Source: an uncultured Pseudomonadota bacterium
Lineage (GTDB): Bacteria; Babelota; Babeliae; Babelales; RVW-14
Assembly (NCBI GenBank): GCA_964527595.1
Contig: CAZGPI010000001.1
Coordinates: forward strand, 145,145-209,144
Reading direction: 5' to 3'
Length of the DNA stretch: 64,000 nt
Under the pieces are notes generated by a model. It saw nothing but the letters and a program-made list of their open reading frames with translations, did not search any database and had not been told where the DNA came from. Position numbers and translations under genes: made by a program. Positions 7,400 through 35,233 of this stretch are shown piece after piece. Positions within the stretch are counted from its first letter, which is position 1. Every line of letters starts with the position of its first letter.

Positions 7400-7426
7400 C
7401 TAATATTGTAATAAACGAGGTTTATC

Positions 7427-8401
7427 ATGAGCGGTTTATTTTGGCCCATCCAATTGTTTGCCAATTGGATGGTTAGCGATATTTTGCACATTGATTCAAC
7501 GTCTAAAATAGCTGATATTCTTAACTTTTTTATCTTTGATACAATAAAAATTTTCATCTTACTTGCAAGCATTGTTTTTATCGTATCACTTATCAGATCA
7601 CTTATTCCAATTAATAGCATCAAGTCATTTTTGTTGGGTAAAAACAAATACCTTGGGCATGTCTATGCTGCTTTATTTGGTATCTTAGTCCCGTTTTGTT
7701 CCTGTAGCGCAGTCCCACTTTTCATGGGTTTTTTAGAAGCAGGTATTCCATTAGGAATAACCATCTCATTTTTAGTTGCTTCGCCAATGATCAACGAAGT
7801 TGCGCTAACCATGCTGCTTGGATCATTCGGATGGTTTGTAGCAATCCTATACTTAATAAGTGGTCTTTTGATTGCCATTTTTTCGGGGATTTTTATTGGA
7901 AAACTGAAAGCAGAAAAATTGCTTGAACCACTTTCTGAAAAAACGTGCAAAAACTGCTGTTCTAAAAAAACCTCAGCTCCAGGCCTGCGAGCGAGAGTTG
8001 TTTATTCTTTGTATTACACAAAGCAAATTCTTGGAGGCATGTGGTTATACGTTTTAATTGGGGTTGGCCTTGGGGCATTTGTACATGGCTATATTCCTAC
8101 CGATTTTTTGGCATTATATGCAGGTGCTGATAAATGGTATGCGGTCCCATTTGTCACCTTAATCGGAATCCCTCTTTATTCTAACGCCGCTGGCGTAATT
8201 CCTTTAATCAGTGCTTTAACACAAAAAGGTATGGCAATGGGGACGGCCCTAGCGCTTATGATGGCAGTCTCCGCTTTATCATTTCCTGAATTCATAATTC
8301 TAAGACGCGTTATGAAACCCAAGCTGATTGTTATGTTCGCTACAATTGTTGGCGTTGGAATTATGTGTATCGGCTATTTGTTCAACTTAATTATCGGGTA
8401 A
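7427..8401 (+). CDS. Predicted permease (COG0701/UPF0718-like multi-TM protein)
   Basis: About 8 hydrophobic segments and the characteristic 'VPFCSCSAVPLFMGFLEAGIPLG' motif. Confidence 0.65.
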   Translation: MSGLFWPIQLFANWMVSDILHIDSTSKIADILNFFIFDTIKIFILLASIVFIVSLIRSLIPINSIKSFLLGKNKYLGHVYAALFGILVPFCSCSAVPLFMGFLEAGIPLGITISFLVASPMINEVALTMLLGSFGWFVAILYLISGLLIAIFSGIFIGKLKAEKLLEPLSEKTCKNCCSKKTSAPGLRARVVYSLYYTKQILGGMWLYVLIGVGLGAFVHGYIPTDFLALYAGADKWYAVPFVTLIGIPLYSNAAGVIPLISALTQKGMAMGTALALMMAVSALSFPEFIILRRVMKPKLIVMFATIVGVGIMCIGYLFNLIIG

Positions 8402-9212: not shown

Positions 9213-9993
9213 TTTTTATTCCTCGTCTAAAAAGAACAGCTGTTAAAAGCCCGGCAACTAAAATCCATCCACATTGGATGCTCAAGTATTTTAGCGATGT
9301 TGCCACGTCAAAATGGACGATGCTATGCGCAGCCCCATAATACAGATTGCTAAAGGGTAGATATTGGACGATGCGTGCAATATTATCTGGAAAAATTGAG
9401 ATAGGCACAATAAGACCGCCAAAGATGTATTGTAGTTGCTGATAAATGCGGTCGGCCGCCGTAGTATCCTCTATCCAAAAGGCCGAAAGTCCGATAATGA
9501 AGTTGATAAAAAAGTCGAGCGTATATCCAAGAAGCAGCAAAATTGATCCGGCAAATATCCCTTGCATGGTGATTGGAATTGCACCAAGGAGTGCAAGAAC
9601 CACACCAATGCCGATGGTAACGTTAAGAATCATTCCTGGCAGCACGCGGCCCAAAAAACTAAAATAGTGAAACAGTATAAATGAATATGGCTTATTGAGT
9701 GAATGGGCAAGCGATCCATCTTTAACTGCTAAGTCGATCGATTCAGAAACACGTGGACGGGTTGCCGACCTAAAACATTGCACAAACATAACACTCCACA
9801 TCGTCATGGCGATTGTTAATCCACCGATTGACGAAGTCCCTTGCGAGGCATAACTAGCCGTATACATCTGCGTAAACATCCAAATACGAAACACAAGCGA
9901 GCCGCTACGAGCAATAAGATTAGCCGGATGAACGGTCCGCGATTGTGAATTGATTTTGGCAATAGAAAGGTATTTTACAATTTTGCGCATCAT
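9190..9993 (-). CDS. ABC-2 family transporter permease
   Basis: Polytopic. Its start overlaps the stop of the ATPase gene (9990-9993), and its end overlaps the next permease. Confidence 0.6.
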   Translation of the reverse strand: MMRKIVKYLSIAKINSQSRTVHPANLIARSGSLVFRIWMFTQMYTASYASQGTSSIGGLTIAMTMWSVMFVQCFRSATRPRVSESIDLAVKDGSLAHSLNKPYSFILFHYFSFLGRVLPGMILNVTIGIGVVLALLGAIPITMQGIFAGSILLLLGYTLDFFINFIIGLSAFWIEDTTAADRIYQQLQYIFGGLIVPISIFPDNIARIVQYLPFSNLYYGAAHSIVHFDVATSLKYLSIQCGWILVAGLLTAVLFRRGIKNVSLNGG

Positions 9994-10979
9994 GATTTTT
10001 TTGCCCGATAAATGTCGGCAATGATTTCTTCCATGGGTTGTTCAAAAATATTAATATCTTTAATATCGAATGTGTTGACCGCATAACTTAACAATTTATC
10101 GATGGGTGTTGTTTTTATGTCCAGTTCAATTTTGATGGTGTGCTTATTTTTTTCTATGATTGTGCCACCTTCAAAAGAAAAGTTTTCAAGCGAATCTTCG
10201 GTTACCAATTCAATGATTTTTGTTTTGATAAAGTTGTTTTTGAGCATATCGGTTGAATCATCAAAAATCACTTTTCCATGGTTGATAACAATGGTACGGT
10301 TTGCAAGTGTTTCAATATCGCCGGCATCGTGCGAGGTAAGGAAAATGGTCGCCTTCTCAGTTTTATTGAGAAACAAAATAACCTCGCGGATGTGTTGCTT
10401 GGCTATAACATCAAGCCCAATTGTTGGCTCATCAAGAAAGATAATTTTGGGTTTATGGAGCAACGAAGCAACAATTTCGCAACGCATACGTTGCCCGAGT
10501 GAAAGTTTGCGGACCGATATAGTCATAAGGTCGCCAATCTCAAATGCATCGACCAACATTTTAAGCCGATCTTGATACATGGTGCGATCAAGTTCATAGA
10601 TGCGAGAATATAGATTATAAGTATCTAACGGCGTTAAGTGATACCACAATTGCGGTTTTTGTCCAAACACCGAACCTATAGAGTAGGCAAGTTTTTGCCG
10701 GTCTTGCGATGGATTTAAACCCAAGACGCTTATTTGTCCCGTGGTTGGATAAAGGATACCGGTGAGCATCTTTATGGTTGTCGATTTTCCCGCACCATTT
10801 GGTCCAATAAAGGCGACCAATTCACCTTCAGTGACCGAAAATGATATATCATCAACGGCCAAAACACTTTTTACTTGAGGGGCGAATAGTGATTTGATTC
10901 CGCCAAGAAAACCGGGTTGCTTTTGTTGCAGCTGAAATTTTTTTGTGAGGTTTTTGACCTCGATGACATGATTATGCAT
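9990..10979 (-). CDS. ABC transporter ATP-binding protein
   Basis: Walker A 'GPNGAGKST', signature 'LSLGQRMR', Walker B 'IIFLDEPT', H-loop 'TSHD'. Confidence 0.9.
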   Translation of the reverse strand: MHNHVIEVKNLTKKFQLQQKQPGFLGGIKSLFAPQVKSVLAVDDISFSVTEGELVAFIGPNGAGKSTTIKMLTGILYPTTGQISVLGLNPSQDRQKLAYSIGSVFGQKPQLWYHLTPLDTYNLYSRIYELDRTMYQDRLKMLVDAFEIGDLMTISVRKLSLGQRMRCEIVASLLHKPKIIFLDEPTIGLDVIAKQHIREVILFLNKTEKATIFLTSHDAGDIETLANRTIVINHGKVIFDDSTDMLKNNFIKTKIIELVTEDSLENFSFEGGTIIEKNKHTIKIELDIKTTPIDKLLSYAVNTFDIKDINIFEQPMEEIIADIYRAKKS

Positions 10980-11073: not shown

Positions 11074-12048
11074 TTAGTAGTGACGCCACGGATAATGCTG
11101 TACAGCCGGGCGGGGCTCTTCAACTCCATATGCGCTGTTGTTACAATCTGGATACGCGTGTCTGCCTCCAGGGCAATTTGCTTGGCAAAACCAGCAAAAT
11201 TCATGGCGACATGATCTGCAGGTCATGTGTCTGCAGCCTCCATTTCTTTCAATCCCTTCATTGCATTGAGGGCATTGTACTCCTGCTTGTAGATATGCAG
11301 CCGTAGCTGGGTCAATATCCCTTGTATCTAAAGACCCAGGAGATAAATGGGCCAGAAGGGCAATGTCGTAAGCTCTGAGCATTGTTGCATTATCGTGTGT
11401 TATTTTTTGTATGTCTTCTCTCGTAAGTACTGCTTGCTCAAAACCAGGGACTATAATTCTATCGAACAAATTACGATCATTCTGATATTTTGTAAAAACG
11501 TGTTGCAATAAACAATCTCTACAACAAGAATATCCGCAATTTAGATGTGTTAAATTTTCATCATTAAAGCAAACGTTGCACGCACCGATATGTTCTTGTT
11601 CATTATCTACATATGTAGGATCTGGATGAATATCAGCGACATTTTGTATGTTGGCTGGGGCAGGAGCAGCAGCTATTCTTGCTTTAATAATGGCAACTTC
11701 GATTTGTTTTTTTATTATGGGAGCACAAATAACGCCAACAACAACAATGCCTGCACCAATGCAAATATTTCGAAGGGTATGGCTTTTGGCTGGGGGTGTG
11801 GCAGCTTCTTTTACTTCATTAGCTTCATCACCAGGTAATAAAGCTTCCTCTGAATTAGGCTGAGACGCTTTGGCCTTATCGGCAAGATCCTGTAATTTAT
11901 TTTTTTGTTTGGCAAGAGCTTGCGCTATTGCAGAACTCTTTTCGTGATATGCATTGTATTTTTCCGGTAAAGCGCAAAAAATTGATGATGTGCTGGTAAA
12001 TAGATAAACAACCAACGCAAATAAAATAGTATTTTTATGTAATTGCAC
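11074..12048 (-). CDS. Membrane-anchored RBR-like E3 ligase-like protein A (degenerate RING1, intact Rcat/RING2)
   Basis: Signal-like N-terminus, coiled coil, and TM 'ICIGAGIVVVGVICAPII'. RING1-like 'CNVCFNDENLTHLNCGYSCCRDC' and Rcat 'CPQCNEGIERNGGCRHMTCRSCRHEFCWFC'. Confidence 0.7.
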   Translation of the reverse strand: MQLHKNTILFALVVYLFTSTSSIFCALPEKYNAYHEKSSAIAQALAKQKNKLQDLADKAKASQPNSEEALLPGDEANEVKEAATPPAKSHTLRNICIGAGIVVVGVICAPIIKKQIEVAIIKARIAAAPAPANIQNVADIHPDPTYVDNEQEHIGACNVCFNDENLTHLNCGYSCCRDCLLQHVFTKYQNDRNLFDRIIVPGFEQAVLTREDIQKITHDNATMLRAYDIALLAHLSPGSLDTRDIDPATAAYLQAGVQCPQCNEGIERNGGCRHMTCRSCRHEFCWFCQANCPGGRHAYPDCNNSAYGVEEPRPAVQHYPWRHY

Positions 12049-12193
12049 GAATGATTCCTTTATGAATATAAAATTCGATGTTAAAACCAGAGTTATTAAA
12101 GCTTATTGAATTTTTATGGAAAAATCAAATCATTCGACTTGACAGCGCAATGCCGAACTTGTTTTTCTATTTGAATTTGACTGGTAGCGGTTT

Positions 12194-13198
12194 TTAGCGA
12201 TGATAGGTTGGAATATGTGCCTCTGCCCCATATATGCCGGCGCCACAGTTTGGATAGGCGTGTGTATGGCCATTATAATCAAGCAAGCAATTATAGCAAA
12301 ATTGATGTCCGCACCGGCAAGTCATATGGTTACATCCTTCATTTCGTTCAACGCCTTGGTGGCAGCGAGGGCAAGGTCTTACGTGTTGATAAATGTATTC
12401 AGCGTCAGCTGCATCCATGTGTTCCATATTTACCGGCACAGGATTTAGGCGTTGCTGATGTGCTCTTTCATAGGCGCCAAGCATTATGGTGTCGTTACTC
12501 GTTATGTTTGCAATGTCATTTCTGTTGATGGTTTCCGTGCATCCGCCTATTGGTTGATCTGGGCAATTTATCATATCAAACCTCTCAAGTGCATTATTGC
12601 GAGCATGTTGGAGGTTTCGTTGCAAGCATTCTCTACAATAAGAGTGTCCGCAATGTAGACGGATTAAGGGACGTTCTTCAAGGCAAATGCCGCATTCGCT
12701 ACGAGGGCCTAATTCTGCTTCTGCATGAATTTGCTCGGGTGCTTGATTGGGCCATGCAAATTGGTTTTGTTGTGGCGCGGCTGGTACCTCGAGTCTTACG
12801 CGTCTCCAGTATTCATCTTCGCGTTGTTGCCGCCTGCGTTCTGCCTCGCGCTCGTCTTCAATTATCGCCCAAACAAGCGCAGCTGCAATAAGGCTAGCAC
12901 CGATAAGAACATTTCTAAGGGTGTGGCTTTTGGCTGGGGGTGTGGCAGTCGCGTCTTTTTCATTGGCATCGTTATTAGGTAATAGTTCCTGCTCTGCATT
13001 AGGCTGTGATTCTTTAGCCTTATCGGCAAGGTCCTGTAATTTGTTTTTTTGTTTAGCAAGAGCTTGCGCTATTGCAGAACTCTTTTCTTGGTGTGAATCG
13101 TGTTTATCTGGCAGAGCGCAAAAAATAGATGATGTACTGGTAAATAGAAAAAGAATCAGCGTAAATAAAATAGTATTTTTATGTAATTGTAATTGCAT
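12194..13198 (-). CDS. Membrane-anchored RBR-like E3 ligase-like protein B (complete RING1 + Rcat, no IBR)
   Basis: RING1 'CGICLEERPLIRLHCGHSYCRECL...INCPDQPIGGC' and Rcat 'CPRCHQGVERNEGCNHMTCRCGHQFCYNC'. The N-terminal ~100 aa are nearly identical to protein A. Confidence 0.75.
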   Translation of the reverse strand: MQLQLHKNTILFTLILFLFTSTSSIFCALPDKHDSHQEKSSAIAQALAKQKNKLQDLADKAKESQPNAEQELLPNNDANEKDATATPPAKSHTLRNVLIGASLIAAALVWAIIEDEREAERRRQQREDEYWRRVRLEVPAAPQQNQFAWPNQAPEQIHAEAELGPRSECGICLEERPLIRLHCGHSYCRECLQRNLQHARNNALERFDMINCPDQPIGGCTETINRNDIANITSNDTIMLGAYERAHQQRLNPVPVNMEHMDAADAEYIYQHVRPCPRCHQGVERNEGCNHMTCRCGHQFCYNCLLDYNGHTHAYPNCGAGIYGAEAHIPTYHR

Positions 13199-13441
13199 GA
13201 ACGATTCCTTTAGTGAATATAAAACTCGATGGTAAAAAACAGAGAATTTAAAGACTACTGAATTTTTATGGAAAAATCAAATAAGCTTTGGGCAGTGTTG
13301 CGCTGCAATTATTTTTTCCATTTGAATTAAGCAATATGCTTACAGTAACACTTTCGATATGCTTCGCCGCGCTACGCGCAGCTTCGCACTTAGGACGAGC
13401 GGGTTTTGTGTATCGAACCATGCGGGCTACATAAAAAACCG

Positions 13442-13915
13442 TTAAAGGGCTTCGGCATAATCTAAGGCTGTATAATCAGCCCAATCACGAATTTCGGCGT
13501 CGGCGCCAGCAGCAAGAAGTATTTGAACCATTGCCGCCTTCTTTTTACTTATTGATTTTACAACAAGAATTAAGGCCGTTTGGCCAAAAATGTTTTTGGC
13601 ATTAACATTAACGCCTGGCATCCCAAGAATTATTTGAACCAAGCTTAAGTCATTGTCTTCTGCCGCTAAGAGTAAGGCGGTATCGCCATCGTTATTTGGT
13701 GTATTGATGTTAATCTGGGGAATTTGAACTAAAGCTTTGGCCAGGTCTTTAGCTCCGCCAAGCTTGGCGATGGTAATAAGTTGGTCGGGTATATCCAAGT
13801 CGGCTAACTCTAAGTCATCGTTCGATGAGTCAATATCCATATCATTAACCATCGCTGACGTATTAAATACGAATATAAAAATACAAATAAATGTAATGCT
13901 TACACACTTAATCAT
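13442..13915 (-). CDS. Secreted ankyrin-repeat protein
   Basis: Signal peptide 'MIKCVSITFICIFIFVFNTSAM'. ANK repeats 'DGDTALLLAAEDNDLSLVQIIL' and 'FGQTALILVVKS...MVQILLAAGADAEIRD'. The ATG at 13915 is preceded by a G6 tract on the coding strand. Confidence 0.8.
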   Translation of the reverse strand: MIKCVSITFICIFIFVFNTSAMVNDMDIDSSNDDLELADLDIPDQLITIAKLGGAKDLAKALVQIPQININTPNNDGDTALLLAAEDNDLSLVQIILGMPGVNVNAKNIFGQTALILVVKSISKKKAAMVQILLAAGADAEIRDWADYTALDYAEAL

Positions 13916-14020
13916 GACGCCCCCCGTCAATTATGCTTTTTTACAACTTCCCACAAGCTGTACATGTAAGTGTTACAAATTTTATTATGATAATTTAAGC
14001 ATAATCGAAAAGTGCTTAAA

Positions 14021-16777
14021 TTACTTGGTCACCTCACCCCAATCTTTACCAGAACGCAAGGTTACCTTTAGCGGAACATCCCAAGAAACAACGGTTTCCA
14101 TATGATGGCGAATAAGCTCGGTAACCGCCGCCTCGTTTTCTGGTAGCACCTGAATCACCAGTTCGTCATGAATCTGAAGCACTAATTGCGCATCAATCTT
14201 GGCCTCGGTTAACGCAGCATCAATCTTAATCATGGCTAATTTTAAGACGTCGGCGGCCGTTCCCTGGACCGGTGTATTAATAGCAACACGGCGCTCGGCG
14301 TCATAAAGATTTCTATTTTTTTCACGCAATCCTGGCACGTAACGTCGATGGCCCCAAATTGTTTCAACATAACCAAGCTCGGTAGCACAAGCGATGGTTT
14401 GATCGATCCATAAAGCAACCCCAGGATATTGGGCAAAATACTTTTCAATATACGCCTTGGCCTCGTTTGGCTTTATCCCCAAATCTTTGGATAATCCAAA
14501 CGGCGTCAATCCATAAATGATACTAAAGTTGATTTTTTTACCCAGCTGACGTTGATCGTTGGTAACCTGATCTAAAGCAACATCAAATAATTGAGCGGCC
14601 GTTTGCGTGTGAATATCGCGGTCATTAAGAAAAGCGTCCACCAGGTTTTTGTCTTTACATAAATGGGCAAGTACGCGTAATTCGATTTGCGAATAGTCGG
14701 CAGATAAAAATATTTTACCCGCATCGGGCTTAAATGCCGACCTAATTTGGATGCCAAATTCAGAACCGGTTGGAATGTTTTGAAGATTTGGATTTGAGCT
14801 AGATAACCGTCCAGTTGCAACCATGGTCTGGCTATATGAGGTATGAATTTTACCCGTACTTGGATTAATAAAGGTTGGAAGCGGTTCAAGATAGGTACTT
14901 TTAAGCTTAGTCAGTTCACGATGCCGAGCAATTAACGTGGCGATAGGTGACTGAGCTCCTAATTCTTGTAGCACTTCTTGGTCGGTTGAGCGTTGCCCTT
15001 TTGAACTCTTTTTGATAACCGGCAATTTAAGTTGGTCAAAAAGCAAAAATTCAACCTGCTTAGGAGAATTAAGATTAAAACTTAAAGGATTAACGATTCC
15101 CTCAAGAGCCGAAAAAAACTTTAATTCAACCAGCTGCCGTTCTTTTTCAACCGCTTTTTCAACGGTCTTAATTTCTTGAACATCAAGTGAAATTCCGGTT
15201 GCTTCCATTTTGGTCAGTATTGGATAGGTTGGCATTTCCAACGTATTAAAAAGTTCCAAAAGTTTTGGATTAGCCGCAAACCCTTTTTTGAGCGCAGCTT
15301 TTAGCTTAAAGGTTTGCAATGCATCATGTGCCCCATAACGTGCACCACGATCAAGTGGTACTTCGGCAAATGTTTTATACTCTTTGCCAACAATTTCGGC
15401 ATAGGTTTGCATCGGTTCATTTAGGCAAAATTGCGATAAATCTTTAAGGTTAATTTTTTGCCATGCATTACGTAAAAGGTTGGCAGCCAAAATTGTATCA
15501 AACGTTACGCCGGCAACATTGACCCCATAATGAAGCAAAACTAAATGATCAAATTTAGCGTTATGTAAAATCTTCTCAATTTTTGCATCTTCAAAGATTG
15601 GCTTAAGAACATTTAACACCAAGTCTCGCGCCAATTGTTGATGATGATCAACAAGACGATGGGCTACCGGAATATAGTATGCTCGCGTAGTATCGACGGC
15701 AAATGATAGCCCAACCAACTCATCTTGCAATGGAAAAAGACCGGTTGTTTCGGTATCAAACGCAAATACACCAGCCTTAATAAGAGTTTCCGCTAAATCG
15801 GTAAGCGCCACTTCGGTTTCTACAATAACACATTCCCACGTTGTAACGAGTAATGCAGGAGCCAACGGAACCAGTGATGCTTGTTGTCCGTCGGTCAATA
15901 TTGAGGCCGTCGCTTCTGACGGATAATCGCGCTCAATTTCTTTTACTAAGCTCGAAAATTCAAGGCGCTTAAATATCGGTGCTGCTTGTGCCCATGTTGG
16001 TTTATTGAATACAAAATCTGAATCTTTTAAGGTCAGTGGGCAATGCTTAAAGGTAAATAGTTGTAAGCTCAAAAACGCTTTATCCTTTTGGGTTTCAAGC
16101 AATATGCGCACGCGATCTTTTTTGACGTTATTAAGGTTTGCATAAAGGTCGTCAAGCGATTCAAATTGGTTGACCAAATCAAGAGCCGTTTTTTCACCAA
16201 CTCCGGCAACCCCTGGAATATTATCGGAGGCATCGCCAAGCAATGAGTGATAAAAGGGGATCTTGGAAACAGGCATACCTTTTTCGGTTTCATAAATTTG
16301 TTGGTCAAAAAGGCGCCCTTTAAATGGATCAAAAACTTTAACTTTTGGGCCAAGCAACTGAAACAGATCTTTATCGGGGCAGACAAGAACAATTTCGCGC
16401 GATGGATTATCATGAACAAGTGAGTAAATAATATCGTCCGCCTCAAAGCCCGATTGGGCTACTTGGCAAATACCAACAGCTTGCACAAGATCGATGATAT
16501 CTTTTTTTTGAAGCAATAATTCACTTGGAGGTGATTGCCGTGTTGCCTTGTACGCCGCATACATTTCGGTTCTAAAGGTTGGGCCCTTGGTATCCCACGC
16601 AATAACTAAATGATGCGGATCAAAATCATCGATAATTTTTTTGAGTGCCCGCGCAAAACCGTACGTTGCTTGTGTTGGAATACCGGTCGAGGTATATAAT
16701 GGCCTGATGGCATAAAATGATCGATACAAGAGGTATGAACCATCGACGATAAATAGTGTTTCTTTTGTTGATTTCAT
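14021..16777 (-). CDS. polA: DNA polymerase I (5'-3' exo, 3'-5' exo and polymerase domains)
   Basis: 'LFIVDGSYLLYRSFYA', 'FAFDTETTGL', 'DYSQIELRVLAH', 'QIHDELV'. Start taken at 'MKSTKETLF' (16777). The track's longer N-terminus has no homology context. Confidence 0.95.
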   Translation of the reverse strand: MKSTKETLFIVDGSYLLYRSFYAIRPLYTSTGIPTQATYGFARALKKIIDDFDPHHLVIAWDTKGPTFRTEMYAAYKATRQSPPSELLLQKKDIIDLVQAVGICQVAQSGFEADDIIYSLVHDNPSREIVLVCPDKDLFQLLGPKVKVFDPFKGRLFDQQIYETEKGMPVSKIPFYHSLLGDASDNIPGVAGVGEKTALDLVNQFESLDDLYANLNNVKKDRVRILLETQKDKAFLSLQLFTFKHCPLTLKDSDFVFNKPTWAQAAPIFKRLEFSSLVKEIERDYPSEATASILTDGQQASLVPLAPALLVTTWECVIVETEVALTDLAETLIKAGVFAFDTETTGLFPLQDELVGLSFAVDTTRAYYIPVAHRLVDHHQQLARDLVLNVLKPIFEDAKIEKILHNAKFDHLVLLHYGVNVAGVTFDTILAANLLRNAWQKINLKDLSQFCLNEPMQTYAEIVGKEYKTFAEVPLDRGARYGAHDALQTFKLKAALKKGFAANPKLLELFNTLEMPTYPILTKMEATGISLDVQEIKTVEKAVEKERQLVELKFFSALEGIVNPLSFNLNSPKQVEFLLFDQLKLPVIKKSSKGQRSTDQEVLQELGAQSPIATLIARHRELTKLKSTYLEPLPTFINPSTGKIHTSYSQTMVATGRLSSSNPNLQNIPTGSEFGIQIRSAFKPDAGKIFLSADYSQIELRVLAHLCKDKNLVDAFLNDRDIHTQTAAQLFDVALDQVTNDQRQLGKKINFSIIYGLTPFGLSKDLGIKPNEAKAYIEKYFAQYPGVALWIDQTIACATELGYVETIWGHRRYVPGLREKNRNLYDAERRVAINTPVQGTAADVLKLAMIKIDAALTEAKIDAQLVLQIHDELVIQVLPENEAAVTELIRHHMETVVSWDVPLKVTLRSGKDWGEVTK

Positions 16778-27694: not shown

Positions 27695-29167
27695 TTACTT
27701 GTCCCACGCTGACACGCGTTGATGCTCATTTACCTTACTCGCAACAACACCATTAAAGAGATCGAGAGAGACAACATTATTTGGAGTCATCAAAGCCTCA
27801 ATGCCGACTTCGGCGACCAATTGATCAATTGAACGGCCAGTAAAACCACCAAGCTTTTGCGCCACGCCATTTATGAATGAGTTATCGATGGTCGACTCGA
27901 GGGTAAGCGGAGATTCACCTTTTTTGAGCGTTGCTTGCCTGAGATATTGATTAATATAAAGCTGTAAAAGCTTGACGCGCTCGCTCAAACCAGGGGCTGG
28001 AATTTCAATCTTTTTGTTAATACGGCTCAATACAGCACTATCCAATGTTTCAGGATAGTTACTTGCCAAAACAAGCATGAATTTTTCGGAGCTTCCATTG
28101 GTTCTTGATAAAAAGGTATTAACCAAATTAACCCCTTTCTCGCTAAGATCTTTACGGTCACGCAATAAGGCATCGGCTTCGTCAATAACCAAGACTAGAC
28201 CTCGCTCACCATGCTCTGCCCAATCAAATAACTCATTTAGTTTTTGTATGCCAACACCAGGTTTAAACTGCGCAACTTCTGCTCCGGAAATAACTATGTA
28301 ATCCATACCGCTTGACCGTGCAATCGTTTTTGCAATCAACGTTTTACCGGTTCCCGGTGGTCCATACAATAACATATGGCGATATTGTAGGCCCTTGGCA
28401 TGCGTCATTGCTGTTGCATTGGCCACAGAAAGGATTGTTTTTTCAAGCTCTGGAGCAAGAACAACGTGAGAAAAAGCTTCGGCTTGATTAATCGGTTGTT
28501 TTTTTGGCATTGCCCAAGAAAAGTATGAACTTAATACACCATCTCGAGATGACTCGTGCGTTAAACTCGGCATGCCTAATGTTGCATAAAAATATTTATA
28601 TATAAATTTTAAGCCATAATAACTGCCAACCGCTCCGGCCGTAGTCACCGTAAGTAAGACCCCCGCTTTGGTCAGATTATCTTTTTGGAATGCAAATTTA
28701 AAACGTTCAAGAGAACCTTCGTTGGCAACGGCTTGAGTTACCCCCGCTTGAGCAACAGCTTCTTTGAGCTTGTCTTCTGCTTTTCCATGTTCAAGAACCG
28801 ATTTCCAACCAGATGAAAAAAAACCTTCTACAAACTGACTGCTTCGAGCGTCAGCTTCCCGTGCTTGCCGCATATCATCTTCTACGCTTTTTTGTTGCGC
28901 ATCAAGAGTCTTCGATTCCTGTTCATATCTAGCTGGTCCTATATCGCCACTATCCTTGAGGTCGCCAAGTTGCTTACGTTGATGCTCAATTTCTGCAAAT
29001 TGGTGCTCAAAATTCTCGCGCACGTGATACGCAACATCTTGCTGAATTCTGTTTGTATCATTATATAGATCAAGGAAATTACCCGCCGCAGCAGGTTCCT
29101 GAGCAAACATATAAACACTAGCCAGCAAAAAGGAACCAATAATTATCGCCACCAATTTCTTATTCAT
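27695..29167 (-). CDS. ATAD3-like AAA+ ATPase (signal peptide, coiled coil, TM, AAA domain)
   Basis: Collinear with eukaryotic ATAD3 from the TM onward. '[12 protein letters not shown]', '[11 protein letters not shown]', '[37 protein letters not shown]', '[26 protein letters not shown]', '[22 protein letters not shown]'. Confidence 0.85.
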   Translation of the reverse strand: [490 protein letters not shown]

Positions 29168-30456
29168 ATCGCTCCACCATTATCTGTAAGTTGTTGTAAA
29201 TTTCCATCATTTTGTGTTCCTGGTTGTTGTATCATCGTATATAATTTTTGAGCCAGCACGACTATTGCCGGCACAATCATTACCAAATTAAGTACCGTTT
29301 GCCACGATGTATATTTTTCCGATTTAAGCCCAAGCCAAAGCGTAAACGAAGATTTATGCCCCTGGCTGAGCATGTTTTTTAATAATGGTTTGTTATCGTC
29401 GGTTGACTGCAAAATTTCTAGCAAAAGCTGATGTTTTTTCATAACAACTTCAAATAGCTTCGGCTGCAAAAATGATTGAATACTCCAACGCATAAAAAGC
29501 AGCATAAATGCAATGCGCTTGGTAAAGTGGTATGTATTTTCAGTCGTCCATTTAGGCAGTAATCCATGGTCTTGCAATAGCCCGTTTACTTGGTCCAAAA
29601 CGCCAGTTTTTAGTATTGTTAACGGCAGATTAGAAAACCACTCTTTCTCAACCAATTCAAACATCGATGGTTGGGATTGAGCTGCGTCATGATAATGCTT
29701 AATTTTTCCAACGTTACACAAACTTGTTGCCAAGACCGTGAGAATGTTTTCCGATTGTAGTTGGTCCAATAAAAAATGTTTTTTAAGCGATTGAAAGGTA
29801 CCATCCAACGCTATATTAATACCAATTGATGGTAATAACTCACGTGTCATTTTGCCTAATATCCAATTAGTTCCGGTATCAAACACAAGCTTATGAATTT
29901 GGTCGGTCGCTTTTTCTAATGCCTTATCATCATGATTATCAATACTATCCTGCATGGCTTGCAATGCATCGATATATTCCTTACGTTGAAGCATCATTTG
30001 ATCGGTAGAAAAATCGGTCCAAAAATTAAGCATATTACGGTACAAATGCCATTCATTGCCCCATTCAAGCAAAACAAAAAGCATTTTACCAAGGTCGCCA
30101 TTACATAAAGAAATTGGAGTCAGTTGATCATTTAAGGGAATATTGAATTGGTATAAAATTGTATCATTAAAAGCTTGTTGATCTTTTTTTCGATATTCTT
30201 CGGCATTTATAAGATGATCAAGAAATTGTTCATCGGTGTAGCGTTTGGCATAATCATCGCCTTTATCGATGTATTTTTGAATAGTTTCTTTAGATGAGTA
30301 ATGGTCGATAATGGTTGAATATTTTTTCATTACCTGGGCAACTCGTGCTTCGGCACTCTCTTCACCTTGCGCATTAACTGCAGCCAAAACAAAGAGCGCT
30401 CCGCATAACCCTAGTAATAAAAAGTAAAAAGTTTGAATCTTATTGTTAAAAACCAT
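29164..30456 (-). CDS. Exported hypothetical protein, translationally coupled to the ATAD3-like gene
   Basis: Signal peptide 'FYFLLLGLCGALFVLAAVNAQG' and C-terminal TM 'VLNLVMIVPAIVVLAQKLY'. Its stop overlaps the downstream start (ATGA, 29164-29167). Confidence 0.55.
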   Translation of the reverse strand: MVFNNKIQTFYFLLLGLCGALFVLAAVNAQGEESAEARVAQVMKKYSTIIDHYSSKETIQKYIDKGDDYAKRYTDEQFLDHLINAEEYRKKDQQAFNDTILYQFNIPLNDQLTPISLCNGDLGKMLFVLLEWGNEWHLYRNMLNFWTDFSTDQMMLQRKEYIDALQAMQDSIDNHDDKALEKATDQIHKLVFDTGTNWILGKMTRELLPSIGINIALDGTFQSLKKHFLLDQLQSENILTVLATSLCNVGKIKHYHDAAQSQPSMFELVEKEWFSNLPLTILKTGVLDQVNGLLQDHGLLPKWTTENTYHFTKRIAFMLLFMRWSIQSFLQPKLFEVVMKKHQLLLEILQSTDDNKPLLKNMLSQGHKSSFTLWLGLKSEKYTSWQTVLNLVMIVPAIVVLAQKLYTMIQQPGTQNDGNLQQLTDNGGAI

Positions 30457-30846: not shown

Positions 30847-32502
30847 TTAAACAACCACCGGGGTAATAAAGATAAGTAACTGCTTGTCTTCGATTGATTT
30901 TTTGGTACCACGGAAAAACCATCCAAGAACAGGAATGTCTTGCAAAACAGGCACACCGCTTTTCATCGTATCGTTTGAATTAACAATCAAGCCACTAATT
31001 AACGTTGTTTGGCCGCTTCGTAGCAAGACACGGTTTTTCGACCGAGTTGTTTTTATGGTGTATCCCATCGACTGAGGTTTGCCATCTTGCTGCCAACTCG
31101 CCGTTATTGTTGGCACCGATAATGAAGAATTTTCTAAGAAAATATCTAAAAAGACCGAATCACTGCCCGGGGAGACAATCGGCCTCACATTAACCTTAAT
31201 GCCAAGATCTTTATATTGCGTTGTGGTTACATTTGAAATATTTGAACCGACCGATTCGGCAACCATGGTTTGTAATGGCATCGACTCACCAACCAAAATT
31301 TCAGCAGATTCTTCGCTATTAACGAGCAACGAAGGTTTTAGTATTGTTTTAATTTCATGACGATTTTCGGCCGCGTTGAGGGTAAGATTTAACAATTTGG
31401 TTAAATCGGCATTTTTAAAAATAAACGGAAGGCTCGACATCCCTCCAGATATGGCCGCATCTCCTGCCTTCCAGCCTGGAATTAGGTTTAATGACCAATC
31501 GGTTACATTGCTAAATGGACTGGGGATCGAAGACGTGCCGTCACTTTTTGGTTGAGCGCCAACGCCAGCAAACCCTAATCGCCTACTCGTTACATTTCTG
31601 GTATAACGGCCTGATAATTGGAACCCAAGCATTTCTTCAAAGTTTTTCTCAGCGACAATTACGCGAACATCAAGCCGAACCTGCGGAATGTTAATATCAA
31701 TTGCTTGAAGCATTGCCTCAAAATCTTGTATTTGGCGTGCATGGCTTTTGAAAAATATTTTTTTAGTTGCATCATCAAATGCAATAAATGTTCCCGGTTT
31801 TCCCTTTTGATCGCCAACAACACCATCCCATAATTTTTCAAGGCGTGCTTTAAACTTATCATCCCATTTGGCATTTTGCATCGTATGAGTTGCATTAACA
31901 TAATCGATGGCTTGAGCATTTTGTGCATTAGCCTTCAGTAACTCGCGGACAAGGGTGTAATGCATTACGCGCCATACACCAAAGGTTTTAATAAGTCCCA
32001 ATCGCGGAGTTGCGCTATTTAAGAGTAGTTGTAATGCAACGGCTATTGGCACATCGTCGGCTTGAGCATCATCAATGGTTCCATCAACATTTGGGTCAAC
32101 AACAAATGCCATTCCGGATATTTTGTTGATTACTTCAATCGCTTTTTTTATCGACATTTTTTTTATGTGCAATGATATTTTTGTTTGCACCAACTCAGGA
32201 TCTTTATACACATCATTCAACAGCGTTGTAAACTCATTTTCATTGTTTTGTTGTTGAGTTATTGCACATATTTTTTCATGGTATATAGTCGAATCTTTTT
32301 TTGCGTTTTTTACCATATGTTCAATTTTCTTTAAAGCTTTTTTAGATCGAACTTCTTGTTCATGGTAAACGAGTGATGTTGCTAATGGTGGCAAATAGAT
32401 ATCGGGGCGCGACATTGGAGGAAGTATCACTTCATCAGCAACAACCGAATAGACTGACAATAAACTGATAACTCCAAAACAAAAAATTTGTGCTTTTTTC
32501 AC
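30847..32502 (-). CDS. Secretin (PilQ/GspD family outer-membrane channel)
   Basis: Signal peptide, N-domains, and a secretin C-domain 'LLRSGQTTLISGLI...KSGVPVLQDIPVLGWFFRGTKKSIEDKQLLIFITP'. Confidence 0.9.
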   Translation of the reverse strand: MKKAQIFCFGVISLLSVYSVVADEVILPPMSRPDIYLPPLATSLVYHEQEVRSKKALKKIEHMVKNAKKDSTIYHEKICAITQQQNNENEFTTLLNDVYKDPELVQTKISLHIKKMSIKKAIEVINKISGMAFVVDPNVDGTIDDAQADDVPIAVALQLLLNSATPRLGLIKTFGVWRVMHYTLVRELLKANAQNAQAIDYVNATHTMQNAKWDDKFKARLEKLWDGVVGDQKGKPGTFIAFDDATKKIFFKSHARQIQDFEAMLQAIDINIPQVRLDVRVIVAEKNFEEMLGFQLSGRYTRNVTSRRLGFAGVGAQPKSDGTSSIPSPFSNVTDWSLNLIPGWKAGDAAISGGMSSLPFIFKNADLTKLLNLTLNAAENRHEIKTILKPSLLVNSEESAEILVGESMPLQTMVAESVGSNISNVTTTQYKDLGIKVNVRPIVSPGSDSVFLDIFLENSSLSVPTITASWQQDGKPQSMGYTIKTTRSKNRVLLRSGQTTLISGLIVNSNDTMKSGVPVLQDIPVLGWFFRGTKKSIEDKQLLIFITPVVV

Positions 32503-32535
32503 ACTCTCCCCTTTTTTTTGATTAAGAGCCGGATA

Positions 32536-32898
32536 TTAATCAAGCTCTAATGCTATAACATGGTCACCGCGAACAAGCAAAACTCTCGTTCGATCGATAT
32601 CTTTTACGGTATATCCCCAAAGCTGATCGCCCGCCACCACAACCTCAGATTCCTTACCGTTGCACAAAGCGGCAGCCAAATGATCACCCATGGCCATAAT
32701 GCCTTCAAGAAAAACGCGTTTTGAGTGATGCTCTATTTTTTGCAGTTTTTTATTTTTCTTTTTAACTGAAGATGCTCGTTCTAGATAAAAGGGATCACGT
32801 GAGACAACTTTTTTTTGTAGAGAAGCACATACATCAAAGATGGTGCCAAAAGCACAACAACCAAGACTATAAATGACTATTTTTTTGTTTATCTTCAT
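32536..32898 (-). CDS. PilP-like small periplasmic protein
   Basis: N-terminal anchor, then a beta-domain 'LEGIMAMGDHLAAALCNGKESEVVVAGDQLWGYTVKDIDRTRVLLV'. Located between the PilO-like and secretin genes. Confidence 0.55.
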   Translation of the reverse strand: MKINKKIVIYSLGCCAFGTIFDVCASLQKKVVSRDPFYLERASSVKKKNKKLQKIEHHSKRVFLEGIMAMGDHLAAALCNGKESEVVVAGDQLWGYTVKDIDRTRVLLVRGDHVIALELD

Positions 32899-33463
32899 TA
32901 TCCCCAAAGCTTATAAAGGTTACTTTCATTTCGCCTTTAATTTTGTGTTTTTTAAAACGCACAAGCGATAACATATTGCAGGTAACAAATTTTTGTTGCG
33001 CAAAAAGGTCTAAAAAAAACAATCTAATCCCTTTAAACGATCCCTTAAAGGTAAGATCAAATGAATGCTTTTGCCAATAGGCACCGCGCTTAACAAGTAA
33101 TGGCTTTAGCTCTTTGCATGAAACATCATGCTTTTTCAGGCCAGCTAACAATATTTCAATCATGATTTGGTCATCAAATATTGAAGCCGCTTTGATAGCG
33201 TTCATTTTTTGATCTAGCTCAAACTTATCATGCTCAAGTAATGGTTTTTGTTGAATAATTTTGGATAAAAAAGTGTTCCGTTGCGCAAGGGTTTGAATCG
33301 TTAACGATGTTTGAATACATGTTTTTTGCATCGGAAGGTATTTCCATAAATACCAACCACCGCTGATAAGCAGCAAAATACTCATCAATAAACAAATGCG
33401 AATCCAGCGAGGAATAGCACTGAGCATAAGTACAAATTTTGATTCATGTAACCAAAATGACAT
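32867..33463 (-). CDS. PilO/GspM-like bitopic inner-membrane assembly protein
   Basis: Single TM 'ICLLMSILLLISGGWYLW', a coiled coil, then a small alpha/beta domain. Operon context with the PilB-like ATPase and the secretin. Confidence 0.5.
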   Translation of the reverse strand: MSFWLHESKFVLMLSAIPRWIRICLLMSILLLISGGWYLWKYLPMQKTCIQTSLTIQTLAQRNTFLSKIIQQKPLLEHDKFELDQKMNAIKAASIFDDQIMIEILLAGLKKHDVSCKELKPLLVKRGAYWQKHSFDLTFKGSFKGIRLFFLDLFAQQKFVTCNMLSLVRFKKHKIKGEMKVTFISFGDNEDKQKNSHL

Positions 33464-33517
33464 ATCGAAATATCCTTTTTGTTTTTGCTGGCGATATGTG
33501 TTTTGGTATGATTTTTT

Positions 33518-35233
33518 TCAACTAATCGCTTCTTCAACGTAGGCTACTGCTAACACTTCTTCAAGAGTTGTTACTCCGGCTTTGATGTTTCTTACACCAT
33601 CAATACCAAGCACCGTCATTCCCTGCTCAATTGCTTTTTGTTTAATCACCGATGCGTCAACACGCAGAACGATCAATTTTGCAATTTCATCATTAACTTC
33701 CATGACCTCAAAAATAGGCATGCGCCCTTTATAGCCTGTTTTCAGGCATTCATCGCAACCTACGGCGCGATAAAAGGTAATTGCCGCCGCCTCATCTTTG
33801 GTGATACCAACACGACCGACAATTTCAGCATCGGGTGTGTATTTTTCTTTGCATTTATCACAGAGCCTGCGAACCAATCGCTGAGAAACAACACAAATTA
33901 ATGACGACGCAATTAAGTATGGCTCAATACCCATATCAAGTAATCGAGTAACGGTTGCCGCGGCGCTATTCGTATGAATGGTACTTAAAACTAAATGTCC
34001 CGTTAAAGCTGCCTGAGTTGCAATTTGCGCCGTTTCTGGATCGCGAATTTCACCAATAAGTACAACGTCTGGATCTTGACGCAAAATTGATCTCAACGCT
34101 GAAGCAAAAGTTAATCCAGCTTTTTCGTTTACTTGTACTTGGCTTACACCATGAATAGTGTATTCAACAGGATCTTCAACGGTAATGATATTTACTTCAG
34201 GTTTATTTAATCTGGTCAAAACTGAATATAAGGTTGTCGTTTTACCAGAACCGGTTGGACCGCTTACTAATATGATGCCGTTTGGCCGTTCAATATTGTT
34301 ACGAACAACTTTAAAATCACGTTCGGATAGATTGATCATTTCAAAATTGACGGCACCCTTGGTTTTATCAAGTAAACGCATAACCACGCGTTCACCAAAA
34401 TTGCATGGCAAAACTGAGGTACGAATATCGATTGCCTTATCGCCAACTTTAATCTGAATACGTCCATCTTGCGGAACACGTTTTTCGGCGATATTGAGGT
34501 TGGCCATGATTTTAATACGCGAAACAATAGCGCTTTGGTAACGCTTAGGAGGAATAACGCGTTGGTACATTTCGCCATCGATACGATAACGTACGCGCAA
34601 TTCTTTTTCGAATGGTTCAATGTGAATATCGGAAGCACTCTCTTTAACCGCTTGGACGATGATATGGTTAACCAGCTTAACAATCGGGGCCTCATTGGCC
34701 TGTTGCATAATGTCTTTTTCTTCCATGGCGCCAGAGTCAAAATCAAATTCGCCAGGTCGACCGTCTTCGGTACTTGAAAGCTCCTCCATCATCTCTTTGC
34801 TTGTTTCCAGAGGATAGTAATGGTTAATCGCTTCATTAATAACGTCTTCGGTTGCAACGGCAGAGGCAATTTCACCGCCCATCAAGAGAACAAGATCATC
34901 CAATGGTTGAAGGTCGAGAGGATTTGCGGTAACAATAGTTTTTTTTCCCTCAAACATAATGGGAATAACACAATGTTGACGCAAAAATTTAAGGGGAACA
35001 TTACCAAGCATTTGCAAGTCAGCCATTTGCTCAGTAATTCGGTCAATAAAAGGAACGCCTATTTGAGTCGCAAGCGCACGAGATAAATCTATCTTGCTCA
35101 CCATTTTACGTTCAAGCAAAATTTGTTCTAGCGAGCTTCCCGATGTTTTTTGTTCGGCTAAACACTCATCTAATTGTTGCTGTGTTAAAACTTTTAATTC
35201 TATAAGAATTTCGCCTATTTTTTTCTTCAGCAT
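33518..35233 (-). CDS. Type IV pilus / type II secretion assembly ATPase (PilB/GspE family)
   Basis: N-terminal GSPII_E_N-like repeat. Walker A 'SGPTGSGKTTTLYS', Walker B 'IITVEDPVE', His box 'TGHLVLSTIHTN', tetracysteine 'CDKC...CDEC'. Confidence 0.92.
   Translation of the reverse strand: MLKKKIGEILIELKVLTQQQLDECLAEQKTSGSSLEQILLERKMVSKIDLSRALATQIGVPFIDRITEQMADLQMLGNVPLKFLRQHCVIPIMFEGKKTIVTANPLDLQPLDDLVLLMGGEIASAVATEDVINEAINHYYPLETSKEMMEELSSTEDGRPGEFDFDSGAMEEKDIMQQANEAPIVKLVNHIIVQAVKESASDIHIEPFEKELRVRYRIDGEMYQRVIPPKRYQSAIVSRIKIMANLNIAEKRVPQDGRIQIKVGDKAIDIRTSVLPCNFGERVVMRLLDKTKGAVNFEMINLSERDFKVVRNNIERPNGIILVSGPTGSGKTTTLYSVLTRLNKPEVNIITVEDPVEYTIHGVSQVQVNEKAGLTFASALRSILRQDPDVVLIGEIRDPETAQIATQAALTGHLVLSTIHTNSAAATVTRLLDMGIEPYLIASSLICVVSQRLVRRLCDKCKEKYTPDAEIVGRVGITKDEAAAITFYRAVGCDECLKTGYKGRMPIFEVMEVNDEIAKLIVLRVDASVIKQKAIEQGMTVLGIDGVRNIKAGVTTLEEVLAVAYVEEAIS

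Follow-up and report, generated by a model that had tools for sequence, protein, structure and literature searches.

A bacterial-type ATAD3-family ATPase and its operon partner as a putative envelope module of a probable member of Candidatus Babelota

The DNA analysed here, referred to as the window, is a stretch of 64,000 nucleotides from contig CAZGPI010000001.1 of an uncultured bacterium (GenBank assembly GCA_964527595.1). On its minus strand it carries an overlapping gene pair encoding a 490-residue AAA+ ATPase that resembles the mitochondrial protein ATAD3 (27695..29167; from the open reading frame (ORF) list, Pfam, protein search, BLASTP and a family profile) and, directly upstream, a 430-residue partner (29164..30456; from the ORF list). 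We propose, at a probability of roughly 60 %, that the two genes constitute an envelope module of a diderm bacterium, made up of a bacterial-type ATAD3-family ATPase and its partner, and that the ATPase belongs to a large and deep bacterial radiation outside the ATAD3 of crown eukaryotes. The ATPase is homologous to ATAD3 and intact in its motifs, and the pair is conserved as an operon and set in a bacterial context; for the pair we infer a function as an ATP-driven envelope-spanning complex, and likewise a topology, an oligomeric state and an interaction between the partners. An earlier note on this locus, made by a model from the letters alone, had described two ORFs coupled through an ATGA overlap, and both ORFs and the overlap are found on this strand. 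The bacterium is diderm and most likely a protist-associated member of Candidatus Babelota (Dependentiae), probably one with a life inside protists, and bacterial genes elsewhere in the window encode DNA polymerase I (Pol I), PilB, GlmM, LptF/G and a secretin.

ATAD3 has been described in animals, plants and protists and is absent from yeast (PMC3790746), in agreement with the earlier note's view of it as a eukaryotic family. In the literature we searched, no report of a bacterial member was found and no paper ties ATAD3, DUF3523 or PF12037 to Dependentiae, Babeliales, TM6 or prokaryotic homologs; automatic pipelines have already given an ATAD3 name in the style of KEGG Orthology (KO) to some bacterial members. 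What appears to be new here, judged from the sequences, is a bacterial ATAD3-family branch in which the N-terminus is of the Sec type, the pore loop is close to canonical and the operon encodes a dedicated partner.

Homology to ATAD3 beyond the AAA core

When 5.8 billion proteins were searched with the 490-residue ATPase, the top 17 matches were uncultured-bacterial proteins of 479-531 amino acids, 32-58 % identical to it, one of them named Candidatus Babeliales and two bearing the automatic Joint Genome Institute name 'ATAD3A/B'. Every match ranked after these 17 is a eukaryotic ATAD3 (E 1e-54 to 1e-47), so that the best matches outside bacteria are ATAD3 and not FtsH- or BCS1-like proteins, the comparison that the earlier note had singled out. 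Across the AAA module the identity to ATAD3, and to animal ATAD3 in particular, is 35-38 %. A BLASTP alignment with zebrafish ATAD3 (P0095) joins residues 133-488 of the query to residues 206-565 of ATAD3 at 35 % identity (E 2e-58), and spans the helix before the transmembrane segment (TM), the TM itself, a linker of the pattern 'LG.PSL..E.SR', the AAA module and the C-terminal helix and tail. The claim that the protein is collinear with ATAD3 well beyond the AAA core is borne out by this alignment. All the peptide strings quoted from the ORF are present, and the ATAD3 strings given in the earlier note are matched by the real zebrafish sequence, in which the counterpart of one quoted 14-letter peptide reads ARLGKPSLVRETSR.

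Against the family profile, the AAA modules of FtsH and Cdc48 reach 95-125 bits and eukaryotic ATAD3 at least 295 bits, so the similarity in the AAA region goes far beyond the generic. The homology also holds once the AAA module is removed. Sequences were cut 40 residues ahead of Walker A, and their profiles were compared with hhalign; the N-termini of 17 bacterial proteins matched those of 102 eukaryotic ones at 97.5 % (E 6e-12), and with 108 bacterial and 56 eukaryotic N-termini the match rose to 99.1 % (E 1.1e-18) over 60 columns, against 1.3 % for a reversed-sequence control. The block aligned in this way extends from the pre-TM segment through the TM to the juxtamembrane linker. Within the linker, P200 is conserved in 100 % of both the bacterial-type and the eukaryotic sequences and is lacking from the outgroups. 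Together with L202, E205 and S207 of the linker, W316 of the FDWA motif and G444-R445, it belongs to a set of residues common to the two groups but not to the FtsH/Cdc48 outgroups; W316 has a frequency of 84 % among the bacterial-type sequences, 100 % among the eukaryotic ones and 0 % in the outgroups, and for R445 the three figures are 98 %, 100 % and 4 %.

These observations bear on whether the protein could be a generic bacterial AAA ATPase, of the FtsH, BCS1, Cdc48 or proteasomal type, that resembles ATAD3 by chance. Such a reading draws on NCBIfam and PDB sequence searches, which return only PAN, FtsH and VCP-type families (no ATAD3 chain was found in the PDB search); in Pfam, the one match in the protein is the generic AAA family (residues 265-390, E 1e-27). 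The NCBIfam and PDB matches, however, cover only residues ~263-475 and lie far under the family cut-offs. In the Pfam search the protein has no match to Peptidase_M41, and BCS1_N is neither among the 12 families at E<=0.01 nor among the 32 at E<=1; BCS1 and Msp1 are likewise not among the specific best matches. The ATAD3-specific homology of TM and linker, the synapomorphic residues and the split from the outgroups, at 92-95 % bootstrap in the trees described below, all speak against chance resemblance, and we regard it as refuted. The 490-residue protein can instead be assigned to the ATAD3 family in a broad sense, defined by the shared unit of TM, linker, AAA module and C-terminal tail. It nonetheless falls outside eukaryotic ATAD3 proper, as it has neither a recognisable ATAD3_N domain, nor a position within the eukaryotic clade, nor the degenerate pore loop.

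Predicted architecture and function of the gene pair

The ATPase can be divided into four parts, all on the minus strand. Residues 1-23 (29099..29167) begin MNKK and are strongly hydrophobic at residues 5-23, with a Kyte-Doolittle value of 2.07, and may be read as a Sec signal peptide or an uncleaved signal anchor, much as the earlier note had predicted a signal peptide. Residues 28-146 (28730..29086) are modelled by AlphaFold2 as two long helices (28-72 and 78-146) and are placed, provisionally, in the periplasm. Residues 160-219 (28511..28690), delimited by hhalign and the conservation of P200, comprise the pre-TM segment, a weakly hydrophobic TM (167-187) and the juxtamembrane linker. Residues 233-490 (27698..28471), delimited by Pfam, conservation and alignment, hold the AAA+ module, its lid and an ATAD3-type C-terminal helix, with Walker A at 269-276, Walker B at D329/E330, sensor-1 at N370, R382, W316 and G444-R445. 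The ATPase-site residues K275 (Walker A), D329/E330, N370 and the Arg finger R382 are present and are 100 % conserved across the family. The AlphaFold2 model has a predicted local distance difference test score (pLDDT) of 73.7, with 84-94 in the AAA module; besides the two long helices it shows helices at 3-22 and 163-197 and, after them, an AAA fold predicted with confidence.

The partner, described earlier as an exported protein that ends in a TM, has a hydropathy profile that agrees with this description, with a signal-peptide-like N-terminus (residues 9-27), a clear C-terminal TM (~387-409) and a short tail. Its AlphaFold2 model, built on a shallow alignment to which a protein search with the partner profile added only one new sequence, is of low confidence (pLDDT 53) and suggests an all-alpha body with one beta-hairpin (100-118). 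Some 25 sequences of the partner family were recovered in all. As read from the sequence, the junction between the two genes (29164..29175, minus strand) has the features of translational coupling: a GGTGGAG Shine-Dalgarno sequence (core GGAG at 29172-29175) ends 4 nt 5' of the ATG of the ATPase gene, and that ATG is overlapped by the TGA of the partner in the tetranucleotide ATGA (29164-29167). An equivalent overlap of -4 or -1 nt is found at loci L004, L084-L086, L089, L090, L092, L093 and L101. A sigma-70 promoter scan gave fewer matches than in shuffled sequence.

The arrangement is widely kept in the family. Among bacterial-type loci with at least 1 kb of upstream DNA, drawn from assemblies and a metagenome scan, 23 of the 24 have a partner homolog directly upstream on the same strand at a distance of -4 to +61 nt, a positive outcome for the synteny check that the earlier note had proposed; eukaryote-type loci in the same survey have no partner homolog. 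Two loci are worth describing in their own right. At L107 (2356-5657), the sole bacterial-type locus with ample upstream DNA and no detectable partner, a 505-residue ORF unmatched by the partner profile lies 260 nt upstream of the ATPase gene. At L209 (GCA_020633995.1, 1-7458) a tandem duplication has produced partner plus ATPase, a lone ATPase paralog, and again partner plus ATPase.

We propose that the module works as follows. The N-terminal Sec signal or signal anchor of the ATPase would export long helices, ~140 residues in all, to the periplasm, the weakly hydrophobic TM, homologous to that of ATAD3, would span the inner membrane and lead into the conserved juxtamembrane linker, and the catalytically intact AAA+ module would lie in the cytoplasm, giving an exported helical domain, a single membrane pass and a cytoplasmic ATPase. 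By analogy with other AAA+ proteins the ATPase is probably a hexamer, in which the periplasmic helices might be bundled as a stalk. The partner, with its signal peptide, helical periplasmic body and C-terminal membrane anchor, would form a complex with it. ATP hydrolysis in the cytoplasm could then power mechanical work on the envelope, such as tethering or remodelling of the inner membrane relative to the outer membrane, or the handling of periplasmic or membrane clients through the retained aromatic pore loop; client handling is suggested by the partner together with this loop.

Several points weigh against the proposal of an envelope module. Upstream of the TM, no profile-profile alignment with the ATAD3 N-terminal region was found by hhalign, and the Pfam family ATAD3_N (PF12037/DUF3523), which the earlier note had named as a check, has no match in the window protein even at E<=10; among the 17 close relatives most are unmatched too, and P0003 alone has a weak match. 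For the long N-terminal helices this leaves a similarity to ATAD3 in architecture, with no homology detected, and the earlier suggestion of a shared coiled-coil N-terminal half does not stand beyond that resemblance. The TM at 167-187, as the earlier note had it, is homologous to the ATAD3 TM by hhalign, but with a Kyte-Doolittle value of ~1.17 it is only marginally hydrophobic; the TM of ATAD3 is likewise marginal in hydropathy. The topology suggested above draws on the signal sequence, the TM and the logic that the ATPase must face ATP and so sits in the cytoplasm. The partner represents an orphan family: relatives were found neither in Pfam, NCBIfam or PDB sequences nor in eukaryotes, and a fold search with its model gave no significant match. 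It is strict co-occurrence in the operon that suggests a complex between partner and ATPase. Of the genes flanking the pair, the secretin and a protein resembling an outer-membrane barrel are kept only in close relatives, and the trees are neighbour-joining only with a weak backbone (supports <40 %).

A different view of the same features is that the ATPase is a secreted mimic of ATAD3 that acts on host mitochondria. The N-terminal signal sequence and the eukaryote-like genes near relatives fit such an effector, and in a preprint (bioRxiv 10.1101/379388) an association with host mitochondria is reported for Dependentiae such as Chromulinavorax. A Sec signal alone, however, takes a protein only to the periplasm, and across the family there is no conserved signal for, or linkage to, a secretion system. 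The conserved internal TM and linker, the membrane-anchored and coupled partner and the near-universal operon in single or double copy fit a complex resident in the envelope better, and we consider an effector role highly improbable.

A deep bacterial family and the origin of ATAD3

An exhaustive hidden Markov model (HMM) search with the family profile covered 1.84 billion cluster representatives at 50 % identity, from which the best 150 proteins were taken. At least 108 clusters among these 150 are full-length, single-AAA, bacterial-type representatives, of ~470-560 amino acids, mostly with a hydrophobic N-terminus and mostly with little or no ATAD3_N signal; in the ranking, true eukaryotic ATAD3 starts at ~330 bits. 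The hydrophobic N-terminus holds by construction in the 89 representatives of the B-type class, because that class was defined by two criteria, one of them a maximal Kyte-Doolittle value of >=1.9 within the first 35 residues. The gene in the window is not an isolated transfer; it belongs to a large and deep family of bacterial proteins. The profile also picks up giant proteins of 1000-2350 amino acids with 3-6 AAA modules (P0126, P0128, P0131, P0137 and others), whose summed scores reach 300-590 bits, and viral contigs showed generic AAA similarity only.

The genes that neighbour relatives of the ATPase include those for FtsY, enolase, TyrS, MurB, PheT, LspA, RNase E/G and GatB. Often close by are eukaryote-like genes as found in intracellular symbionts, encoding RING, WH2 and SAP domains and large ankyrin arrays. 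In L087, a Candidatus Babeliales metagenome-assembled genome, three tandem RING-finger genes and a gene for a WH2-domain protein lie near the ATAD3-like gene (11284-14921), and in L088 a SAP-domain gene does so (9550-10149). Two relative records are named Candidatus Babeliales. One record is labelled Campylobacterota (protein P0160; L209 carries this label), which looks doubtful given the ankyrin-rich context; in L209 a 3302-residue ankyrin/tectonin protein is encoded near the module.

We built custom neighbour-joining trees from simple distances with 200 bootstraps. On hmmalign columns the eukaryotic ATAD3 sequences form a clade at 88 % and the ingroup separates from the outgroup at 55 %; on an independent MAFFT alignment the eukaryotic clade receives 85-89 %, and the split of the outgroups from ATAD3 plus the bacterial-type sequences 92-95 %, which groups the protein with ATAD3 against FtsH/Cdc48 in a phylogeny of the kind that the earlier note had proposed as a check. 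Plants, an apicomplexan, an oomycete, Fonticula, a choanoflagellate and animals are represented in the eukaryotic clade, which therefore spans Opisthokonta, Archaeplastida and SAR (stramenopiles, alveolates and Rhizaria) among the lineages sampled. The window protein falls on the bacterial side of the split from it. Monophyly of the bacterial sequences is recovered in 0 of 200 replicates on the MAFFT alignment, and reciprocal monophyly in 1.5 % of rooted bootstraps; in 97 % of these replicates the eukaryotes have as their sister a small subset of bacterial sequences, which includes P0233 in 75 %, P0210 in 72 % and P0239 in 70 %. The midpoint root, like the outgroup root, lies inside bacterial diversity. 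Mean identity is 35 % within the bacterial sequences and 48 % within the eukaryotic ones, and the window protein has a mean identity of 38 % to other bacterial members, compared with a maximum of 39 % and a mean of 35 % to eukaryotes.

The three proteins of the sister subset look like bridging sequences between bacterial-type and eukaryotic ATAD3. In P0210, P0239 and P0233 a stretch of ~200 residues matches the ATAD3 N-terminal profile at 65-78 bits, and their Pfam ATAD3_N matches are significant or weak; they belong to the same family as the window protein, and P0210 and P0239 have a signal peptide, but their N-termini are of the ATAD3_N type. P0210 is clearly bacterial, encoded on a 1.32-Mb contig together with MurB, PheT and LspA, while the contigs of P0233 and P0239 are only 2.6-3.2 kb long, with a gene density that suggests a bacterial origin. 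The P0210 locus (L206) is without the partner, and has instead, upstream (6972-7982), the gene for a 336-residue signal-peptide protein with an HExxH-like motif, HEANH. Downstream in L206 (9710-17015) is a series of tandem ankyrin-repeat genes, several with overlapping starts.

Pore loop 1 adds a further character. In the window protein it reads QFKPG (residues 300-304; 28256-28270, minus strand; located by residue conservation by group), in keeping with the bacterial-type pattern QF..G, in which the aromatic position is F/Y in 87 % and Gly is present in 75 %. The outgroups have [KM][FYW]VG, and in eukaryotic ATAD3 the loop is P[LM]G, one residue having been deleted in 100 % of the sequences. 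The state of this loop is potentially a useful polarity character between the groups.

The earlier note had left two options for the origin of the gene, a host-to-symbiont transfer repurposed for the bacterial envelope or a hint about where the ATAD3 family comes from. A recent transfer of a protist ATAD3 into this particular bacterium could appeal to the general propensity of amoeba symbionts for acquiring host genes and to the 35-38 % identity to animal ATAD3. All bacterial-type sequences, however, lie outside the eukaryotic clade, even though that clade reaches from plants and apicomplexans to oomycetes, Fonticula, choanoflagellates and animals; the family comprises no fewer than 108 clusters at 50 % identity and has a conserved bacterial operon partner; and the window protein is nearer to other bacterial members than to eukaryotes by the identities given above. 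Recent host-to-symbiont transfer appears very unlikely because the bacterial sequences are outside the eukaryotic clade and the root is inside bacterial diversity, the more canonical pore loop also disfavours it, and for this bacterium we treat it as effectively refuted. The second option, a hint about the origin of the family, may still hold.

An ancient transfer between bacteria and eukaryotes did take place, and rooting and pore-loop polarity lean towards the direction from bacteria to eukaryotes. One tentative reading, to which we give clearly less than even odds, is that eukaryotic ATAD3 descends from this bacterial family: a stem eukaryote would have taken up the gene before the last common ancestor of eukaryotes (LECA), with a Babelota-like intracellular bacterium, or else a shared bacterial donor, as the source, and the arrangement of partner plus ATPase would be ancestral. 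Consistent with it are a small bacterial subset as the sister of the eukaryotes, bacterial paraphyly, the midpoint root and the larger divergence among the bacterial sequences. The pore loop can be ordered from [KM][FYW]VG in the outgroups through QFxxG in bacteria to P[LM]G with a deletion in eukaryotes, and the sister subgroup is bacterial, with P0210 on its long contig matching the ATAD3 N-terminal profile. Against it stand the simple distances and weak backbone of the neighbour-joining trees, in which long-branch attraction of the outgroups to fast-evolving symbionts could fake paraphyly; the short contigs of P0233 and P0239; the missing partner gene in the P0210 lineage; and the apparent status of the examined carriers as symbionts or parasites of eukaryotes, a setting that eases gene flow from eukaryote to bacterium. 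A bacterial origin of this kind concerns where the family came from, and is compatible with the envelope-module explanation.

The opposite direction stays plausible because of possible neighbour-joining artefacts and the host-associated carriers, and we give it only slightly lower odds. Here an ancestor of these intracellular bacteria would have captured a stem or near-LECA ATAD3, which then acquired a Sec signal and a partner before it diversified with the phylum. Nearby genes for ankyrin, RING, WH2 and SAP proteins do give the carriers examined a host-associated look, the literature otherwise knows ATAD3 from eukaryotes only (PMC3790746), and fast symbiont evolution could account for the high bacterial divergence. 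A scan of GTDB genomes, flooded by the generic Walker-A pattern, has been counted on the same side, with at least one full-length relative (L004) among the matches listed, a figure with no bearing on the true distribution. But a capture from eukaryotes sits poorly with a bacterial pore loop that is more canonical, its aromatic residue and Gly being lost in all sampled eukaryotes, with the placement of the root among bacteria by both rooting methods, and with a tightly coupled bacterial partner that has no eukaryotic homolog. Returning to a bacterial source, we offer only as a speculation, held with low confidence, that ATAD3, a vital organiser of how mitochondrial membranes are built, is not a eukaryotic invention and was gained before LECA from Babelota-like intracellular bacteria, in which it was a trans-envelope machine with a dedicated partner.

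Flanking genes, known systems and implications

The partner-ATPase pair lies directly downstream of a type IV pilus-like cluster on the same minus strand (30847-35233), which comprises a PilB ATPase (33518-35233), small ORFs (32536-33463) and, at its end, a PilQ-like secretin (30847..32502; from Pfam/NCBIfam and context). Between the secretin and the partner gene are 390 nt and a weak terminator-like hairpin, and the order of secretin/pilus-like cluster, partner and ATPase gene is also found in L084 and L085. Downstream of the ATPase gene is a protein of ~720-746 amino acids (25393..27633, minus strand; the real start is probably the ATG at 27576), whose membership in the module is uncertain. 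It is probably an outer-membrane beta-barrel, to judge from a weak Alginate_exp match and an end in ...GLEYKF. This protein is 58-72 % identical in L084-L086, above the conservation of the ATPase or the partner, and is missing beside distant relatives of the ATPase. Elsewhere in the window are a 544-residue fusion of Memo-like and AMMECR1 domains (20392-22026, minus strand) and a single tRNA gene (42682-42755, plus strand), which is the only Rfam match in the window; there is no rRNA.

ATAD3A of mitochondria has coiled coils for oligomerisation in the intermembrane space, an anchor in the inner mitochondrial membrane, an ATPase in the matrix and an N-terminus that reaches the outer mitochondrial membrane (PMC10419812). 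The layout suggested for the window protein is topologically equivalent, with a helical domain in the compartment between the membranes, one membrane pass and an ATPase on the cytoplasm/matrix side, and the two proteins share the TM, the 'LG.PSLVRE.SR' linker, FDWA, G.SGR, the C-terminal helix and all catalytic residues. They differ in that the window protein has a Sec-type hydrophobic N-terminus where ATAD3 has a long N-terminal extension, an N-terminal region of ~160 instead of ~245 residues, a pore loop without the eukaryotic deletion, an operon with a dedicated partner and a branch outside the eukaryotic clade. FtsH is likewise an inner-membrane AAA+ protein of the classical clade, with a periplasmic region, a cytoplasmic ATPase and an aromatic pore loop, but its two N-terminal TMs enclose a small globular domain in the periplasm and its C-terminus is an M41 zinc protease, features that are all missing from the window protein. 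Its AAA module scores ~100-118 bits against the family profile, and the window protein scores 76.8 against the NCBIfam FtsH model, whose cut-off is 600. BCS1 and Msp1 (ATAD1) are also single-AAA ATPases with an N-terminal membrane anchor that act on membrane-protein clients; their anchor, however, is at the extreme N-terminus and they have no exported domain, and the window protein has neither BCS1_N nor an Msp1-type N-terminus.

ATAD3 is indispensable to animals, carries mutations in human neurological disease, and has been implicated in contacts between inner and outer membranes, cristae, nucleoids and lipid traffic. A large bacterial sister family with an intact ATPase, a canonical-like pore loop and an obligatory partner may offer a tractable comparative system for it, and the conserved residues (linker P200, FDWA and G.SGR) can guide mutagenesis. 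The origin of ATAD3 becomes directly testable, including a possible non-alphaproteobacterial input from intracellular bacteria to the mitochondrial proteome. If ATAD3 did come from bacteria, the bacterial module would represent an ancestral and experimentally simpler ATAD3 system. For the biology of Candidatus Babelota/Dependentiae, the finding flags a conserved and duplicated putative envelope module.

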